64,000 bases of DNA from an uncultured Holophagales bacterium (GTDB taxonomy: Bacteria > Acidobacteriota > Thermoanaerobaculia > Multivoradales > UBA5704). Below are positions 46,164 through 52,116 of the stretch, piece after piece (within the stretch, counting starts at the first letter, position 1; every line of letters begins with the position of its first letter). A program made the translations under genes and the position numbers. The stretch is from NCBI GenBank assembly GCA_963842525.1, contig CAWJGT010000009.1, positions 800,001 through 864,000 on the forward strand, read 5' to 3'. A model generated the notes under the pieces. It saw only the letters and a list, made by a program, of their open reading frames with translations. It was not told where the DNA came from and ran no database searches.

Positions 46164-46653
46164 ATGACGAAGCGCGCCGCAGCCGAATTCATCCCACTGG
46201 AAGCCGACTCGCAGGGGGTTCTGCGAATCTCTGGGACGCATGTGACTCTGGAGTCGGTGGTGGCGGTGTATAGGACCGGCAGAACGGCCGAGCAGATTGC
46301 CGAGCTGTACTCGTCTCTCCAGCTAGCGGATATCTATGCCGTGCTGACCTATTACCTGCGCCACCAAGAGGAGGTCGAGACATACATCCGGCGGCATCAT
46401 CGCCAAGTCGATCCCGCCTTTATGATTGATCAGGTAGCGAGCGAGCGATCAGAGCCTCCTAGCCCGTAAATACGGGGGTCAGGAGCTTTCTGCTAATGAT
46501 CAGGAGCGGCTTGAAGCGCTCACCGCAAGACTCAAGGATGCTTTACCGCCTGTCTCCTTTGACGACCTCAAGGTCCTCCTGGAAATGACGGAAGAAGTGG
46601 AGAGCATCCGCGAGCGCGCCCGCGAGCGTCGGCAGCGTCTCGGGTTGAGATAG
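46164..46653 (+). CDS. DUF433-domain protein; C-terminal helical extension after apparent +1 frameshift near 46455
   Basis: ISGTHVTL..GRTAEQIAELY..L.LADIYAVLTYY. The shifted frame continues LLARKYGGQELSANDQERLEALTARL to TAG 46653. Confidence 0.65.
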
Positions 46654-46659
46654 GCGGAA

Positions 46660-47304
46660 ATGGACGATCTTATCGAGTCGCTGCTCTTTCCGAGACAGCG
46701 CCAGGAGCGGGGTCACGATCCAGGCCCTTTCAGCGACCATCGCCTCTACAAACCACATCTCCAGAGGGGATTCCGAAGGAAGTGCGTTTATTGCCGCGTC
46801 TCGGATGGGCTGAAAGGTTATGAGGGTTTCGGCGTCGATCACTACCTACCCAAATCCAAGTTCCCCGCTCTCACAGCAGAATGGTCAAACCTCTTGTATG
46901 CCTGTAACGTCTGCAACACCTGGAAGGGTGAGTCCGTATCCACTCCTGAACGATTCCTTCCCAACCCTTGTGTGCATACAATGGCGGATCACCTCCAATA
47001 CCAAGGAGCCGATATCGAGACCTACACGCCGCATGGAGAATGGCTGGCGGAGTTGCTCCATCTCGCGGAGCGACGAGAGCTACGAGAGCTTATCTTCGCC
47101 ACCCTCGGCCAGTTCCTCAGGACTCGCAACGAGCTCCTTCGGGATCTGACTACCTATGAAGCCCAGCTCGATGAGGATCCGGACGCAAAGGAGCGGAGCG
47201 CAATTCAGGTCGCAATTCAGGAAAGTACGGAAGAACTGGCGCGGGTGAGCCGATATATCGAGCTCATCACCGGAGAGCCGGTTGCTGCGGAACGGGGCGG
47301 CTGA
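46660..47304 (+). CDS. HNH endonuclease family protein
   Basis: CVYC, VDHYLPK, NLLYACNVCN.K. Confidence 0.85.
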   Translation: MDDLIESLLFPRQRQERGHDPGPFSDHRLYKPHLQRGFRRKCVYCRVSDGLKGYEGFGVDHYLPKSKFPALTAEWSNLLYACNVCNTWKGESVSTPERFLPNPCVHTMADHLQYQGADIETYTPHGEWLAELLHLAERRELRELIFATLGQFLRTRNELLRDLTTYEAQLDEDPDAKERSAIQVAIQESTEELARVSRYIELITGEPVAAERGG

Positions 47305-47539: not shown

Positions 47540-47850
47540 ATCCAGAGTCCGTGGAACCACGCCAGGAAATTTGGACCGCGTCCAGAGCTCTGTGGAACCG
47601 ATTCAGGGTCACGCTGCATCGATCCAGGAAATTTGGAAGGCGTACAGAAATTTTGGAAGCGATCCCAAAAATTTGGAACGGGTCCAGAATTTTTTGGAAC
47701 CGCTTCCGCGTTTCGCTGTATCGATCCAGAAAATTTGGAACGCGTACAGAAATTTTGGAAGCGATCTCAAAGATTTGGAACCGGTCCAGAAAATTTGGAA
47801 CGCGTCCAGAACCCCGGGAATCGATCCCGCGTCATCCGGATCTCGTTCAG
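47540..47850. repeat. tandem array of 20-21-bp palindromic units (TCCA-N7-TGGA)
   Basis: About 15 degenerate units such as CCAGAAAATTTGGAACGCGT, with a 102-bp higher-order repeat (47618 vs 47720). Confidence 0.85.
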
Positions 47851-47887: not shown

Positions 47888-49270
47888 TCACGGAGTTCCC
47901 GATCCAGAGAAGAGGAGCGGCTCGGCATCTTCCGCAACTCCGGGGAAGCGCGCGTCGGGATCGTGGCGTGCCCTCAGGAGGAAAGCGGCAACCTGGCGGG
48001 CCAGACCGGCGTTGGCCGCCTCGGTGAGCGCCGCGTTCTGGAAGACCGCCAAGGCGGCGAGCGCCTCGCGGTGCACCTCCTGGGAGAGGAAGATCGGGAC
48101 CATCCCACGGACAAGGTCCTTGACCTCGGCGGTCTGCCCTTCCTCGTCATAGAGGGCTGCCAGCTCCAGCGCCGCGAGGGAGGCATCATAAGCCATCCCC
48201 CTGTCCAGAAACGCGCGCCAGACCTCATCGAGCATCCGGACCGCCTCCCTCCGCTCGCCGGTGCCAGCCGCGACCCGCCCCTCCGTCCATCTCAACCGGG
48301 CCAGATCCAGGGCATTTTCCAGCTCCCGACAGAGCCCCTGGACGCCGGGAAGAAGCTCCCTGGCTTCTTCGAACCGGCCAAGCGTTGTCAGATTCCAGAC
48401 GAGGTTGTGCCGGCAACACAGGAGGAGGCGAGGATCACGGCCTGGGTCTATGAGGTGGACAGCCTCCTTCAACAGCTCGACCGCCGCTTCCGGCTGCTCG
48501 GCGTCCGCGAAGGCGAATGCCTTCTTGACCATGGCCCGCCCTGCCAGATGTGGATCTCGCTGCTCCGGTCTCCCTTCCTTATAGATATGGATCACGCGGT
48601 CCAGCAGGCCCAGAGCCTCGGGAAACCGCCGCTGAGCGATTCGTAGCGAGGCTTGCAGGTCCCAGAGGACCGGCCGATAGCCGAGGGCATCCTCTTCCCG
48701 ATCAGCCCAGAATCGGTCCGAAACGGCGTCAGCCTCTTCGGCGCTCCGGAGCTCGCCAAGCACCCGGCGGGCGTTAGCGAGGTAGATCCAGGCGAGAGAC
48801 CGGACCTCGTCGAGCCAATCTTCCTCGAAGGGTTTGCCCGCTTCGAGGCGATCAGCAACAGCCACCGCCAGCTCCGCGATCTCGACTGCCAGGACGACCT
48901 CGCTAGCTGCGATGGCTTCGCTCTTCTGAGCGAGAAGCTCGCACAAGCCCAGGCTTCGGAACCGGGGCTCGTGATCGATCCGGACGAGTTGCTCGTTCAA
49001 AGAGAGGCCGGAGAGTTCCTCCCAGAGGGTCGGCGCCTCAGCTCTCGATTGCGCGAGTTCCACATCGAGCCGCCCGAAGACGGCCGGGAGGTGACCCGCC
49101 CGATGGAGGTCCAGGATGTAGCCGCCCACCTCCGAGCACTGCGGGCAGACCTCCAGTCGGTGCAACAGGGACGCACAGCGATCCGCCTCGGTCTCCTCGC
49201 CGGCCAGCCATTGCTCCAGAGCCTCCGGGCTCAGGTGCCGCTCGTTCACGCGCTTCTCCTTTCGGACCAA
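47888..49270 (-). CDS. TPR-repeat protein with N-terminal anti-sigma-like zinc finger
   Basis: HL...HRLEVCPQC, tandem TPR-like helices, C-terminal EVHREALAAL. Confidence 0.8.
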   Translation of the reverse strand: MVRKEKRVNERHLSPEALEQWLAGEETEADRCASLLHRLEVCPQCSEVGGYILDLHRAGHLPAVFGRLDVELAQSRAEAPTLWEELSGLSLNEQLVRIDHEPRFRSLGLCELLAQKSEAIAASEVVLAVEIAELAVAVADRLEAGKPFEEDWLDEVRSLAWIYLANARRVLGELRSAEEADAVSDRFWADREEDALGYRPVLWDLQASLRIAQRRFPEALGLLDRVIHIYKEGRPEQRDPHLAGRAMVKKAFAFADAEQPEAAVELLKEAVHLIDPGRDPRLLLCCRHNLVWNLTTLGRFEEARELLPGVQGLCRELENALDLARLRWTEGRVAAGTGERREAVRMLDEVWRAFLDRGMAYDASLAALELAALYDEEGQTAEVKDLVRGMVPIFLSQEVHREALAALAVFQNAALTEAANAGLARQVAAFLLRARHDPDARFPGVAEDAEPLLFSGSGTP

Positions 49271-49332
49271 TGCTTACGACACTTCGTATCCTACACCGGA
49301 GTTTGCGCGATACGTCTAGGCATGCCGGCATT

Positions 49333-49605
49333 CTAGCCATGCGGGTCCAACTGGCCGCCGTTGTCGCCCGTCACGCCGCTCGGGTCCAACTGCCCGCCGT
49401 TGTCGCCCGTGATGCCATCGGGATCGAGCTGGCCGCCGTTCTGGCTCCAGACGGCGGTGAGCAGGTTACACACCTGCTCGAAGAAGCCGGGGTCCGCGGT
49501 CCTGCCGGAATCCTGGAAGAGGGGGAGAGCTTGGGCGAGCCCAGGTGAGAGAAGAGCTGCCAGGGCGAGAGCTGCGATCGTACGGCCCGTCTTGGGAGGC
49601 AACAT
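49333..49605 (-). CDS. small secreted precursor peptide with three NGGQLDPxG repeats
   Basis: Sec-type signal (..ALALAALLSPGLAQA), 39-bp/13-aa tandem repeat, AGGAG RBS. Confidence 0.8.
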   Translation of the reverse strand: MLPPKTGRTIAALALAALLSPGLAQALPLFQDSGRTADPGFFEQVCNLLTAVWSQNGGQLDPDGITGDNGGQLDPSGVTGDNGGQLDPHG

Positions 49606-49802
49606 GGCAAGGCTCCTAGGAAGCGGCTGCGCCTCACCGCCGCCACGGCCGCGAGCGAGCCGCCCTCAAGAACGTGAGTGCCCCGGCAGCGCGACAACGA
49701 TCCTCGAAGCAAAGTCATGGAGGGGGCAGTTTTCCGGCGGGGGCGTGGTGAGAGTCCCTGGGAAAGCGGGCGGGGCGCCCGCCCTCCCAAGGAACAAGCA
49801 TA

Positions 49803-50457: not shown

Positions 50458-52116
50458 TCAACCTTGAATGGATCTCCCGGGAACATGGTTTCGCAGGACT
50501 AAATCGAGGCATTGGGTAAACTGAGAACGAAAGCTTTCACCCGGTACCGGCGAAAACAAAAAATAATAACGTTCACCGTGTATAGCCTTATAATCGATCA
50601 TGTTGGTGCCGTCTTCGATCAAAACACCATAGGATAGACGCAAGGCGCTGGCGACTCCAAGTTCCCAAAGTAACCAAGGCGAGCACCGACTACTTCCCAC
50701 ATCCTTTTCTGATGGTGCCCAAATTCCTATAAAGTGTGTGGCCTGCGAAATACGGCCTAAAACCTCATCGCGAACTACTGGCTGCTCTTTCGTACCTCGA
50801 ACCAAATCAAATGCGATCCCCCTAGCCTTGCAACATTCACGCGCGATATCTATGCGAGCTTCATTGATTTTTGAAAACTCTACAGACAGAAATACCGTCG
50901 GCCTTATCTGGCCACGAGCCGTGCGAACCTTTCGAATGCCATGAAGCAATGCAGCCTTAGAGACCTGAGCAGCCTCTGCATCTCCCGCCGGGACATCGCG
51001 CTGGGATTGCTCCAAAGAGAGTTCCTTCTCTGCCAACCATTCATGCACTCCTACCTGCCGCGCCAAAAGCCACACAGCCGCAGGCGCATCTTTCCCGGGA
51101 GGAGTACGCATTTCATCCTTCACTATCTCCTTGTCAAAAAATGTAGTTGATGCATAAACCTCAAGAGCCCCCGATTTAAAAAGTGCGGCCACTTCTTTTT
51201 CTCGCCCCCTGTCCTCATCTTCACCTGCGTGTGTCCATTCCTCTCTCGAGAGAATGACCTCGAACCAACTTCTCCCCTGGTGACGCTGGATTCGGTTTAG
51301 AGCAGAAAGTATTGTGATTCCGCCTTGTCTAATCTGATCCGTAATAGCCGACAACGCGCCAGGTCTATCGTTATGTCTGATAGAACACCAAAGAATTTGC
51401 CGATCATTTGGAACTATGGTGATGCGAAATAGGCGTTCCCTTGTATCGGATGAAATGAAATATGTGAGCGGCAAAGAAAGCGCGATAGATCGACCACTTT
51501 GCGGCTGGGTGGACAGCATATGAATTAGCGGCTCCCGGAGAGTTAGGTAGCCATGGTTTGTAAGTTCCTCTTCTTGCACGAGAGTATTGTGACGCGAGCT
51601 GCGCAGTCTCTTGAGCAGTGAGTCTAAGTTACGGAGGGTTGAATTGGGGCGGACGCGAATCCCAAAACCGAACCCCGGTCCCTCCACAATGTGGTCGTTG
51701 CAATCAGCCAAGAGAAGTCCCTCAATTTCACTTGAGAGATCGACTCCAGCTCCTTCGGATTCGCTCAGGCTCGCAAAATCAACTACCAACTCAACGTGAT
51801 GGCGACTCTCTTGATCAGTGGAAGTGCTATCAAGGTTAAGTACATTGCCACCGTGTCGCGAAATGGAAGCCAGGATGGAGTGAAGCACTCCCGGCGCATC
51901 CTTAAGTGCGACAGAGACTAGATATACGGCAGGCCAAGAACTCTGCTGTATAGTTGTCCCAAGAACTTCAGGTAATTGTTTTTTCCCGGTACCGAGTTGG
52001 TGAACTGGAGCTAGAAACACTGTGGTACCTGGAGACAGAGATAGGTGCCCTCGGTGATAAAGCGGTAAGGCAACCTTCCAATCTTCCGTGACTTGCGGCC
52101 AATCTAAAACGAACAT
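50458..52116 (-). CDS. tandem ACT-domain protein with C-terminal TIR/NDT-like domain (low GC)
   Basis: DAPGVLHSIL..HGGNVL and DRPGALSAIT..GGITIL (ACT-like); VFLS...SPWLLWELGVA (TIR/NDT-like). Confidence 0.7.
   Translation of the reverse strand: MFVLDWPQVTEDWKVALPLYHRGHLSLSPGTTVFLAPVHQLGTGKKQLPEVLGTTIQQSSWPAVYLVSVALKDAPGVLHSILASISRHGGNVLNLDSTSTDQESRHHVELVVDFASLSESEGAGVDLSSEIEGLLLADCNDHIVEGPGFGFGIRVRPNSTLRNLDSLLKRLRSSRHNTLVQEEELTNHGYLTLREPLIHMLSTQPQSGRSIALSLPLTYFISSDTRERLFRITIVPNDRQILWCSIRHNDRPGALSAITDQIRQGGITILSALNRIQRHQGRSWFEVILSREEWTHAGEDEDRGREKEVAALFKSGALEVYASTTFFDKEIVKDEMRTPPGKDAPAAVWLLARQVGVHEWLAEKELSLEQSQRDVPAGDAEAAQVSKAALLHGIRKVRTARGQIRPTVFLSVEFSKINEARIDIARECCKARGIAFDLVRGTKEQPVVRDEVLGRISQATHFIGIWAPSEKDVGSSRCSPWLLWELGVASALRLSYGVLIEDGTNMIDYKAIHGERYYFLFSPVPGESFRSQFTQCLDLVLRNHVPGRSIQG

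Follow-up and report, generated by a model that had tools for sequence, protein, structure and literature searches.

Here we report the analysis of a gene pair located within a stretch of 64,000 nucleotides from the genome of an uncultured Holophagales bacterium of the phylum Acidobacteriota (positions 800,001 to 864,000 of contig CAWJGT010000009.1, assembly GCA_963842525.1; G000:C9:800001-864000 in our numbering, where C9 is this contig). The whole stretch is referred to as the window; the genome comprises 9.95 Mb with 67.8% G+C. The first gene of the pair encodes a small peptide with a predicted secretion signal and three near-identical cores at its C-terminal end, and the second, downstream on the same strand, encodes a protein with a zinc-finger-like N-terminal region followed by a long array of tetratricopeptide repeats (TPR). 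Roughly a hundred diversified copies of such a pair exist in this genome; the one in the window is composed of the following parts.

49333..49605, minus strand: pre-pro-peptide gene, 90 aa; an open reading frame (ORF) with AGGAG 7 nt ahead of its ATG and with homologues in the genome and in databases.
49528..49605, minus strand: predicted Sec signal peptide, residues 1-26, with a K/R n-region, a hydrophobic core and AQA directly before an L (sequence inspection).
49447..49485, minus strand: conserved amphipathic Trp-rich helix, FFEQVCNLLTAVW, directly before the first core; alignment A2 shows it as the block LWSxLTAxW, which recurs in the peptide lists.
49336..49440, minus strand: three tandem cores NGGQLDP(D/S/H)G with xTGD spacers, the last core ending at the stop (Tandem Repeats Finder and codon comparison).
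49250..49332, minus strand: spacer of 83 bp that separates the stop of the peptide gene from the probable GTG start of the TPR gene, with no promoter-like or terminator-like site and no inverted repeat.
47888..49249, minus strand: gene of the cytoplasmic Zn-finger/TPR protein, 453 aa (460 aa from the TTG at 49270), supported by the ORF, the database protein P0001, a Shine-Dalgarno sequence and an AlphaFold 2 (AF2) model.
49085..49249, minus strand: N-terminal domain resembling the zinc-binding anti-sigma (ZAS) finger, P0001 residues 1-55, with candidate ligands H5, H30, C35 and C38 (ligand conservation and hhalign).
47933..49051, minus strand: TPR sensor module, P0001 residues 67-439, common to the paralogues that carry a helix-turn-helix (HTH) domain (hhalign of the two class alignments, A1 and A3).

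Both ORFs were found, with their translations, where a preliminary description of the locus, made from the letters alone, had placed them. The 90-aa ORF reads MLPPKTGRTIAALALAALLSPGLAQA, continues across the predicted cleavage point with LPLF...FFEQVCNLLTAVWSQ, and ends with NGGQLDPDG-ITGD-NGGQLDPSG-VTGD-NGGQLDPHG and the stop codon. Four parts can be distinguished in it, namely a signal-like N-terminus, a spacer of ~14 residues, the amphipathic Trp helix, and the three cores. Signal-peptide and transmembrane calls in this study are based on inspection combined with a simple hydrophobic-window rule. Tandem Repeats Finder detected a 39-bp unit in 2.7 copies at 49336-49440, which corresponds exactly to residues 56-90, so that the ORF and repeat data agree in every part with the earlier account of a signal peptide, a spacer and three cores built on a 39-bp unit and ending at the stop. 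A comparison of the first and second repeats shows four codon changes in the NGGQLDP core, all of them synonymous; residues change at the x of DPxG and at the first position of the spacer. The restriction of core differences to synonymous positions indicates that the peptide frame is read and constrained as protein. Pfam gave zero matches in the peptide, and NCBIfam gave nothing meaningful for either protein of the pair. A PADLOC match to JetD over the signal peptide (E 2.5e-4) covered a weak stretch and was treated as noise. The closest neighbours of the peptide in the ESM Atlas, at 0.88-0.89, are hypothetical proteins of Acidobacteriota, which we take as a lead only.

The TPR gene can be read from a TTG as a 460-aa ORF at 47888..49270 (minus strand), and this was the form previously described, with a distance of 62 bp to the peptide gene. 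The co-orientation of the two genes holds, but the GTG at 49249 is more likely to be the start of translation, since it is preceded by AAGGAG 6 nt upstream and since the resulting product matches the 453-aa database protein P0001; with this start, the spacer between the genes measures 83 bp, not 62 bp. A scan with consensus promoter and terminator models, which are uninformative for a non-model phylum, found nothing between the peptide and TPR genes, and beyond that interval it gave one promoter-like site that is unrelated and, within the TPR gene, one that is terminator-like, numbers not above those in shuffled sequences; no inverted repeat was detected by scanning the 83-bp spacer. In the TPR protein, Pfam recognized TPR models only (TPR_10 at 37.2 bits versus a cut-off of 27.5), and PADLOC returned no match. 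By sequence inspection, the protein has neither a signal peptide nor a transmembrane segment.

Searches of the genome revealed a large family of such pairs. Using tblastn, we obtained 116 matches with the TPR protein and 38 with the peptide. A hidden Markov model (HMM) of the family TPR region matched 187 of the six-frame ORFs, among which 113 reached at least 100 bits, our threshold for counting family ORFs, and 56 reached at least 300 bits, treated as full-length TPR genes. Three rounds of searching the genome ORFs with a peptide HMM yielded 58 ORFs, 55 of them unique, and every peptide follows a common plan consisting of a signal-like N-terminus, a Trp-rich helix, and 1-4 units of the form x4-D-P-x-G. 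An uncharged hydrophobic window with an upstream start codon is present in 53 of the 58. The number of DPxG units among the 55 unique peptides is one in 17, two in 21, three in 16 and four in a single case, that is, 2-4 units in 38/55; the C-terminal end is exactly DPxG in 20 and lies within 8 residues of it in 49. By comparison, two or more DPxG motifs occur in only 83 of 37,886 background ORFs of 60-200 aa, and a peptide profile searched against an exhaustive library of 1.84 billion proteins matched 2,691 cluster representatives at E<=1e-3, including 862 at E<=1e-10. Because of this background rate and these profile matches, the repeat pattern is not attributable to chance. In a word-indexed database, the same profile matched 106 clusters, none of which is named and none of which has a Pfam family. 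The closest orthologues of the window peptide, also of 90 aa and 79% and 78% identical to it, retain the three-core layout, and the wider NGGQLDPxG subfamily has 2-3 identical cores separated by S/T/P/G spacers of variable length. Genomes of high G+C content carry many spurious ORFs, and in a genome of 68% G+C the small ORF might be a non-functional frame lying by chance over a DNA repeat. We find this origin scarcely believable in view of the 862 representatives, the two orthologues with three cores, the Shine-Dalgarno sequence, the synonymous-only differences among the cores and the conserved position beside TPR genes across genomes.

The peptide and TPR genes are linked one to one. A family TPR ORF lies within 1 kb of 53 of the 58 peptide ORFs, and an HMM-detected peptide lies within 1 kb of 40 of the 56 full-length TPR genes. 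Inspection of 17 TPR ORFs (16 of them full-length) without an HMM-detected peptide revealed a small motif-bearing ORF missed by the HMM at 8. In genomes other than that of the window, the peptide gene stands beside the TPR gene at 14/25 loci, and among metagenome-assembled genomes (MAGs) of other Thermoanaerobaculia it does so at 56 of 79 loci, several of the hitless ones having truncated flanks; 43 of these peptide hits are directly upstream on the same strand. The preliminary description had proposed to look for small secreted ORFs ending in xGxx[LI]DPxG next to TPR paralogues, and these counts, which concern small secreted ORFs with a terminal x4-DPxG, answer that proposal in the positive, both here (53/58) and elsewhere (56/79).

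Two further arrangements of family genes in the genome may be mentioned. A decayed duplicate of the window pair lies at C1:371804-373304 (loci L002 and L022), with a frame-split TPR gene whose product is 85% identical to that of the window and with only residues 1-37 of the peptide left (84% identical). At C9:424154-441068, a tandem cluster contains at least 7 Zn-class TPR genes, each preceded by a single-core, Lys-rich peptide gene of the ...GxCIDPxGxPxPC type.

No third gene accompanies the pairs: within 4 kb on either side of the 56 full-length TPR genes, no recurrent additional gene family or enzyme was detected. The largest cluster of neighbours, 12 ORFs near 14 loci, was considered as a third gene and rejected, as its members contain HTH domains and are probably additional fragments of the family. 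In the window, the scanned neighbours comprise an HNH nuclease, a DUF433 gene, an ACT-domain protein and two ORFs without a match, and none is an enzyme of the type that modifies ribosomally synthesized and post-translationally modified peptides (RiPPs) according to Pfam and NCBIfam, as the preliminary description had said of the adjacent genes. These observations bear on the possibility that the peptides are multi-core RiPP precursors, in which the signal and helix would be the leader, the DPxG units the cores, the modifying enzyme would be encoded elsewhere, and the TPR protein would act as a regulator or recognition factor. Such a role would agree with the many paralogous precursors, whose N-terminal part is conserved and whose repeated C-terminal cores are hypervariable, and the Cys pairs found in many cores might be joined by cross-links; a single enzyme serving many precursors is known from the prochlorosins, for example. 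We nevertheless consider it improbable, because a modifying enzyme is neither adjacent in the window nor recurrent within 4 kb of the 56 TPR genes, RiPP leaders do not usually take the form of a classical Sec signal with an AxA site, and each precursor has its own TPR gene, unlike in the known many-precursor systems. Our literature search on Thermoanaerobaculia and RiPPs retrieved unrelated papers only.

The family is taxonomically narrow. All taxon-labelled relatives come from Thermoanaerobaculia, Acidobacteriota or 'Holophagales' MAGs and are annotated as hypothetical, TPR or HTH proteins. Members were detected in 9 of the 121 genomes of a class-level sample (3/3 in family f1, 4/4 in f3, 1/1 in f4, and 0/18 in f5) and in 4 of the 201 genomes of a phylum-level sample, all of these in the order of the window; among the searched genomes, the family is confined to one order of Thermoanaerobaculia (Acidobacteriota). 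At E<=1e-20, the copies number 35, 49 and 44 in three genera of the window's own family, 15 in f4 and 4 in f3.

From this linkage, and from the domain, core and structural comparisons described below, we propose that the two genes form a cognate module, in which a secreted pro-peptide is matched to a TPR sensor in the cytoplasm, and that the pair represents a new and massively expanded family of peptide/receptor modules in a diderm phylum that resembles the RRNPP (Rap, Rgg, NprR, PrgX, PlcR) peptide receptors. In our judgment, this proposal stands an even chance of being right.

The N-terminal regions of the TPR proteins follow three architectures among the 72 TPR ORFs with at least 250 bits. 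Class A proteins, which include the window protein, have a Zn-finger-like N-terminus with an H...CxxC motif; their peptide gene is upstream and co-oriented in 13 cases, 10 of these with linear and 3 with Cys-flanked cores, and downstream in 1. Class B proteins carry an XRE-type HTH domain, and all 4 that were tested passed the cut-off of Pfam HTH_3 (32.0, 41.0, 29.1 and 25.3 bits versus 23). For all 10 class B genes at which a peptide was detected, the peptide gene is encoded on the opposite strand and its cores, of the type NGCxIDPxGRC, are Cys-flanked. Class C ORFs have no N-terminal domain. When the class A alignment (A1, 43 sequences) was compared with the class B alignment (A3, 40 sequences) using hhalign, they matched over 364 columns with a probability of 100%, E of 4e-108 and 38% identity, covering residues 67-439 of the window protein; different N-terminal domains have been swapped on a common sensor. 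When the 56 full-length TPR modules were placed in a quick maximum-likelihood tree, the HTH class formed one clade with a support of 99 in the Shimodaira-Hasegawa-like approximate likelihood ratio test (SH-aLRT), a monophyletic third of the paralogues, which implies a single change between HTH and Zn finger. The window protein and three relatives constitute the sister group of this clade (SH-aLRT 96).

HTH modules are organized as triplets, in which a receptor gene, an opposite-strand peptide gene and a second receptor gene follow one another; examples are found at C31:16620-20548, C9:1870552-1873943, C7:90941-94388 and C14:51570-56005. In six such flanking pairs of receptors, the TPR modules are 69-98% identical. 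The N-terminal regions of five of the six pairs are only 26-30% identical over 27-97 residues, and in the sixth pair 14 residues could be aligned, with 57% identity. The paired HTH receptors appear from their sequences to place different DNA-binding heads on a common sensor around one peptide gene, and this suggests that gene conversion or selection keeps two output heads on one ligand specificity. Among the indirect signs that TPR specificity may be tied to the adjacent peptide, we regard this one as the strongest.

The main rival to our proposal is bound up with the same receptors. The TPR protein could be a regulator, either a DNA-binding or a sigma-sequestering switch, that controls its neighbour, and the secreted peptide could be simply the product under control, which acts outside the cell, for example as a bacteriocin-like, adhesive, metal- or Ca-binding or kin-recognition peptide, and never meets the TPR protein. 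One-to-one linkage and co-duplication would follow equally well from such an arrangement. It does not account for the paired receptors, whose TPR modules stay 69-98% identical and whose N-termini differ in 5 of the 6 pairs; it does not explain why roughly a hundred regulators would be needed for roughly a hundred single small genes; and immunity, export or modification genes were not found beside the peptide genes in the scan of neighbours within 4 kb on either side. On balance, we consider a regulator paired with an effector to be unlikely, though it has to be taken seriously.

The N-terminal region of the window protein has the spacing H-x4-C-x2-C, versus the canonical H-x3-C-x2-C of ZAS proteins. 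Across the 43 class A relatives, H5, C35 and C38 (P0001 numbering) are invariant and H30 is nearly so. A genome-wide scan with the zf-HC2 model (PF13490) gave 19 matches, 2 of them inside paralogues of this family (C32:4457-4540 at 35.9 bits and C3:1685072-1685155 at 33.7 bits, cut-off 22.2), and hhalign aligned residues 8-50 of the class A N-terminus with 16 zf-HC2 regions of the genome (probability 68.7%, E 4.5e-5). On contig C34, two class A paralogues are located directly downstream of genes for extracytoplasmic function (ECF) sigma factors and have no peptide gene. The identification of this N-terminus as a diverged ZAS-like domain is moderately supported by these data, as is the anti-sigma-like finger of the preliminary description; an anti-sigma role of the window protein itself we infer from the sequence likeness. 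The arrangement on C34 (43373-47870) consists of two consecutive operons, each with an ECF sigma gene followed by a Zn-finger/TPR gene, and may represent an ancestral sigma/anti-sigma form of the family. A sigma/anti-sigma operon was rejected as the general context of the family, as only 4 of 47 Sigma70_r2 matches in the genome lie within 3 kb of any family ORF.

The cores provide a second line of evidence for the proposed cognate module. In 95 peptides with two or more cores, the five variable core positions show an identity of 0.66 among cores of one peptide versus 0.33 between peptides, and in 18 of the 95 the core 8-mers are fully identical. Successive DPxG motifs are set 4 to 25 residues apart, counted from G to D, and the low-complexity spacers vary freely. 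For 76 TPR-peptide pairs, TPR distance correlates with core distance in a Mantel test (r = 0.455), and a partial Mantel test given leader distance gives 0.40, neither value being reached in any of 2000 permutations. Cores and TPR modules have diversified together, and the co-variation of peptide and TPR protein that the preliminary description had proposed to look for is found in the sense that core divergence tracks TPR divergence. This tracking beyond leader distance is left unaccounted for if the peptide is an effector that never meets the TPR protein. That explanation gains from the shape of many cores, since the pattern C-x2-DPxG-x-C resembles the disulfide-closed beta-turn loops of extracellular effectors.

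The partial correlation is also relevant to another possibility, namely that the TPR protein binds the peptide before export, for example through the Trp-rich helix, and that export of the pre-peptide frees or engages the output domain, so that the system would report secretion capacity rather than cell density. The receptor is cytoplasmic, the peptide is made in the cytoplasm, the amphipathic helix is the best conserved element outside the cores, and re-import across two membranes would not be needed; moreover, TPR proteins commonly serve as chaperones of secretion substrates. Such a switch leaves unexplained the concerted tandem cores, the exact DPxG termini, and the closer tracking of TPR divergence by the cores than by the leader (partial r 0.40). 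We accordingly rate it as a poor candidate, no better than the RiPP precursors discussed above.

The structure of the TPR module was evaluated using an AF2 model of the window protein, which is all-helical and of high confidence (predicted local distance difference test, pLDDT, 91.2; predicted template modelling score, pTM, 0.87). The top Foldseek matches were the TPR domain of LGN/Pins (E 2e-5) and the RapJ-PhrC complex 4gyo (E 3e-5), followed by the Rap proteins of phage phi3T and of pLS20, and by RapF. An independent fold scan with VIA against 48,161 PDB representatives ranked LGN first (Z 22.2), followed by Pins (21.2), RapI (20.0, rank 3, root-mean-square deviation (rmsd) 4.0 over 300 aligned residues), NprR (18.7, rank 4), Cut9 of the anaphase-promoting complex APC/C (18.5), phi105 Rap (18.3) and RapH (17.7), with lower values for BtubC (16.1, the best bacterial TPR protein outside the RRNPP group), PlcR (15.7) and domain III of MalT (15.0). 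A model of an HTH-class protein (pLDDT 89.9) gave 20.6 for RapI and 20.4 for NprR (rmsd 3.5 over 297 aligned residues), and the order was unchanged. As judged from these models, RRNPP receptors are the nearest solved prokaryotic structures. TPR-containing pathway regulators such as MalT (domain III) share the fold, and Pfam TPR_MalT matches occur in paralogues; both count in favour of a regulator that controls a neighbouring effector gene. For 83 sequences taken from both classes, conservation reaches at least 93% in 28 columns. Of these, 16 lie in TPR A helices, among them 6 of the 8 conserved polar residues (N159, R162, R318, W321, R394 and E395). It is plausible, given their placement in the model, that these A-helix residues read the invariant D-P-x-G of the cores.

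A number of results weigh against the proposed cognate module. The Mantel signal includes shared ancestry and partly reflects the split between Cys and non-Cys classes, and joint duplication of the two genes would also yield both co-diversification and linkage. A mutual-information analysis gave a weak and phylogeny-confounded signal, with 20 of the top 40 core-TPR pairs in A helices versus 119 of 368 columns. Many cores are Cys-flanked, as is the case in each of the 10 HTH-class pairs for which a peptide was detected, and by their sequence the flanking cysteines suggest disulfide loops located outside the cytoplasm, unlike the linear pheromones of RRNPP systems. Acidobacteriota are diderm, so that a released peptide must cross two membranes to return; the combination of a cytoplasmic receptor and a diderm organism is a point in favour of an extracellular effector. 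Neither an importer nor a processing protease linked to the modules was found in the neighbour and OppA searches, and 11 of 25 Zn-class TPR genes have no HMM-detected peptide. With regard to the output domain, the N-terminus of the window protein has no Pfam match at E<=1, including PF13490 zf-HC2, and no sigma gene adjoins the window pair, the nearest Sigma70_r2 match being at C9:864159, ~14.5 kb off; on this point the anti-sigma-like finger of the preliminary description finds no counterpart at the locus. The fold is unspecific, as the eukaryotic LGN ranks above Rap and APC/C subunits are only 1-2 Z units lower, and hence the fold alone proves neither kinship nor function. A sequence profile search of the PDB returned generic or designed TPR and pentatricopeptide repeat (PPR) proteins, KLC and IFIT, and no Rap, NprR or PlcR. 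No RRNPP sequence family of Pfam or NCBIfam matches, only generic TPR and HTH models. The overall RRNPP-like interpretation put forward in the preliminary description is supported in part, by the linkage, the XRE HTH paralogues and the Rap/NprR-like fold, and stands without a match to an RRNPP sequence family. Given this lack of a sequence family match, the different phylum, the new gene order, the DPxG and Cys features and the Zn-finger output, the family is RRNPP-like in architecture and is not a sequence-level member: it can be said to work like an RRNPP system, not to be one.

If the pair is indeed a cognate module, we envisage the following mechanism. The 90-aa precursor would be exported by the Sec pathway and its signal peptide removed, as predicted from its sequence. 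Periplasmic or extracellular proteases would then cut the spacers and release up to three near-identical peptides of ~9-13 residues ending in DPxG, the last of which needs no C-terminal cut because its core ends at the stop codon. The peptide would accumulate outside the cell and would subsequently be re-imported; OppA-type binding proteins are present in the genome. Two of the three SBP_bac_5/OppA-family genes lie 2-4 kb from TPR loci, with no transporter operon evident, and this proximity is too weak to use. Once in the cytoplasm, the peptide would bind in the concave groove of the TPR solenoid, where invariant Asn, Arg and Trp residues may read D-P-x-G and variable residues may read the variable flanks. 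Binding would switch the N-terminal output domain: in the window protein, the ZAS-like finger would most likely hold or release a protein partner such as an ECF sigma factor, and in the sister clade the XRE HTH would bind DNA directly.

Comparison with known systems shows both likenesses and differences. The RRNPP receptors and their AimR relatives, collectively RRNPP(A) (Rap-Phr, NprR-NprX, PlcR-PapR, Rgg-SHP, PrgX and AimR-AimP), likewise combine a small gene for a Sec-type pro-peptide, with the active part at its C-terminal end, and a cytoplasmic TPR receptor, and in both cases many diversified paralogous pairs occur per genome. Their sensor is fused to an HTH (NprR, PlcR) or to a protein-binding helical domain (Rap), and in the present family to an HTH or a helical Zn finger. 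The differences concern the gene order, the peptide gene being placed either co-oriented ahead of the receptor gene or in tail-to-tail fashion between two receptor genes; the cores, with their invariant DPxG turn and frequent Cys flanks; the ZAS-like finger as one of the output domains; the far higher copy number, with 113 TPR-family ORFs here and 35-49 in sister genera; and the host, a diderm acidobacterium rather than Bacillota or their mobile elements. Large-scale RRNPP surveys, such as that with RRNPP_detector, covered only Firmicutes and viruses (PMC10075063; PMC12700828). The RRNPP_detector paper presents intracellular TPR peptide signalling as a trait of Firmicutes, with Proteobacteria and Actinobacteria typically using small molecules (PMC10075063), and the authors of a structural phylogeny of RRNPPA receptors point out that an outgroup is still to be found (PMC12700828). 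Phage Rap-Phr systems provide a precedent for tandem pheromone copies: the Phr proteins of phi3T and phi105 are reported to have several putative copies per pro-peptide, released by extracellular proteolysis (PMC11343458). Duplication is the rule in the present family (38/55 with 2-4 units), and its units are separated by low-complexity spacers of 4-25 residues. Our literature searches found no RRNPP system in Acidobacteria and likewise no peptide quorum sensing with a tetratricopeptide protein in Acidobacteriota, as judged by titles and the beginnings of abstracts.

Other comparisons concern single domains. ZAS anti-sigma factors (zf-HC2, PF13490), such as RsrA and ChrR, likewise have an N-terminal helical domain with an upstream His and an H...CxxC motif, whereas the window protein is soluble by inspection, has the H-x4-C-x2-C spacing, is fused to a 370-residue TPR solenoid and has no adjacent sigma gene. 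The TPR domain of LGN/Pins, the top fold match (rmsd 4.2 over 303 residues), is superhelical and accommodates extended peptides in its inner groove, but it belongs to a eukaryotic scaffold with 16% sequence identity, and no evolutionary or functional link is implied. The family is reminiscent of MalT and regulators of the LAL/SARP type through TPR_MalT (PF17874) matches, in paralogues and in database relatives, and through the fold of MalT domain III; these matches fall short of the Pfam cut-off, an NTPase (STAND) domain is lacking, and the ligands belong to a different class.

Several additional features of the locus were recorded, two of which are given below.

49755..49793, strand not assigned: imperfect 18-nt inverted repeat, 83% complementary, with a 3-nt loop, 150-190 bp 5' of the peptide start.
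47567..47811, strand not assigned: AT-rich tandem array directly 3' of the TPR stop, detected by Tandem Repeats Finder with periods of 20, 40, 62 and 102.

The inverted repeat could be an operator, or else the terminator of an upstream transcript. The unit of the AT-rich array is about TCCAGAAAATTTGGAACGCG, and its link to the peptide/TPR module is uncertain; the genome has 9 such arrays, 4 of them within 1.5 kb of a TPR-family ORF, and one of these 4, of the window type, accompanies the decayed duplicate on C1. Either a protein-binding array or a small mobile repeat is conceivable. Among the neighbouring genes, the 214-aa HNH nuclease at 46660-47304 (plus strand) was assigned by PADLOC to PtuB, a component of the Septu defence system (E 6.7e-19), and weakly matches the NCBIfam models of retron and PtuB HNH nucleases; a PtuA ATPase gene was not seen beside it. 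The DUF433 gene lies at 46164-46469, and the ORF at 50458-52116 (minus strand) encodes 552 aa with an N-terminal ACT domain (Pfam E 1.7e-7), its other ~430 residues having no family match.

Beyond the cognate pairing itself, a more far-reaching claim can be made, which we advance tentatively as somewhat more doubtful than the pairing. The modules may be true peptide-pheromone channels and, in that case, the first family of exported oligopeptides with cytoplasmic TPR receptors in a diderm phylum, with dozens to roughly a hundred private channels per cell, whose outputs would include DNA binding, dual receptors with one ligand, and control of ECF sigma factors via the ZAS-like domain. The family could be the missing outgroup of the Firmicutes RRNPPA receptors, or a convergence on them. 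Acidobacteriota are abundant soil bacteria that are hard to culture, and this large, unnamed family is confined to an understudied soil lineage; the claim is testable with synthetic peptides and recombinant protein and requires no culturing. If it is true, the family would be a candidate language of cell-cell communication or kin recognition for Acidobacteriota, and peptides would be usable for intracellular-receptor signalling across a double membrane. Each genome would then offer roughly one hundred natural receptor/ligand pairs in which the DPxG scaffold is fixed and the specificity positions vary, and thereby a system for studying how signalling specificity diversifies.

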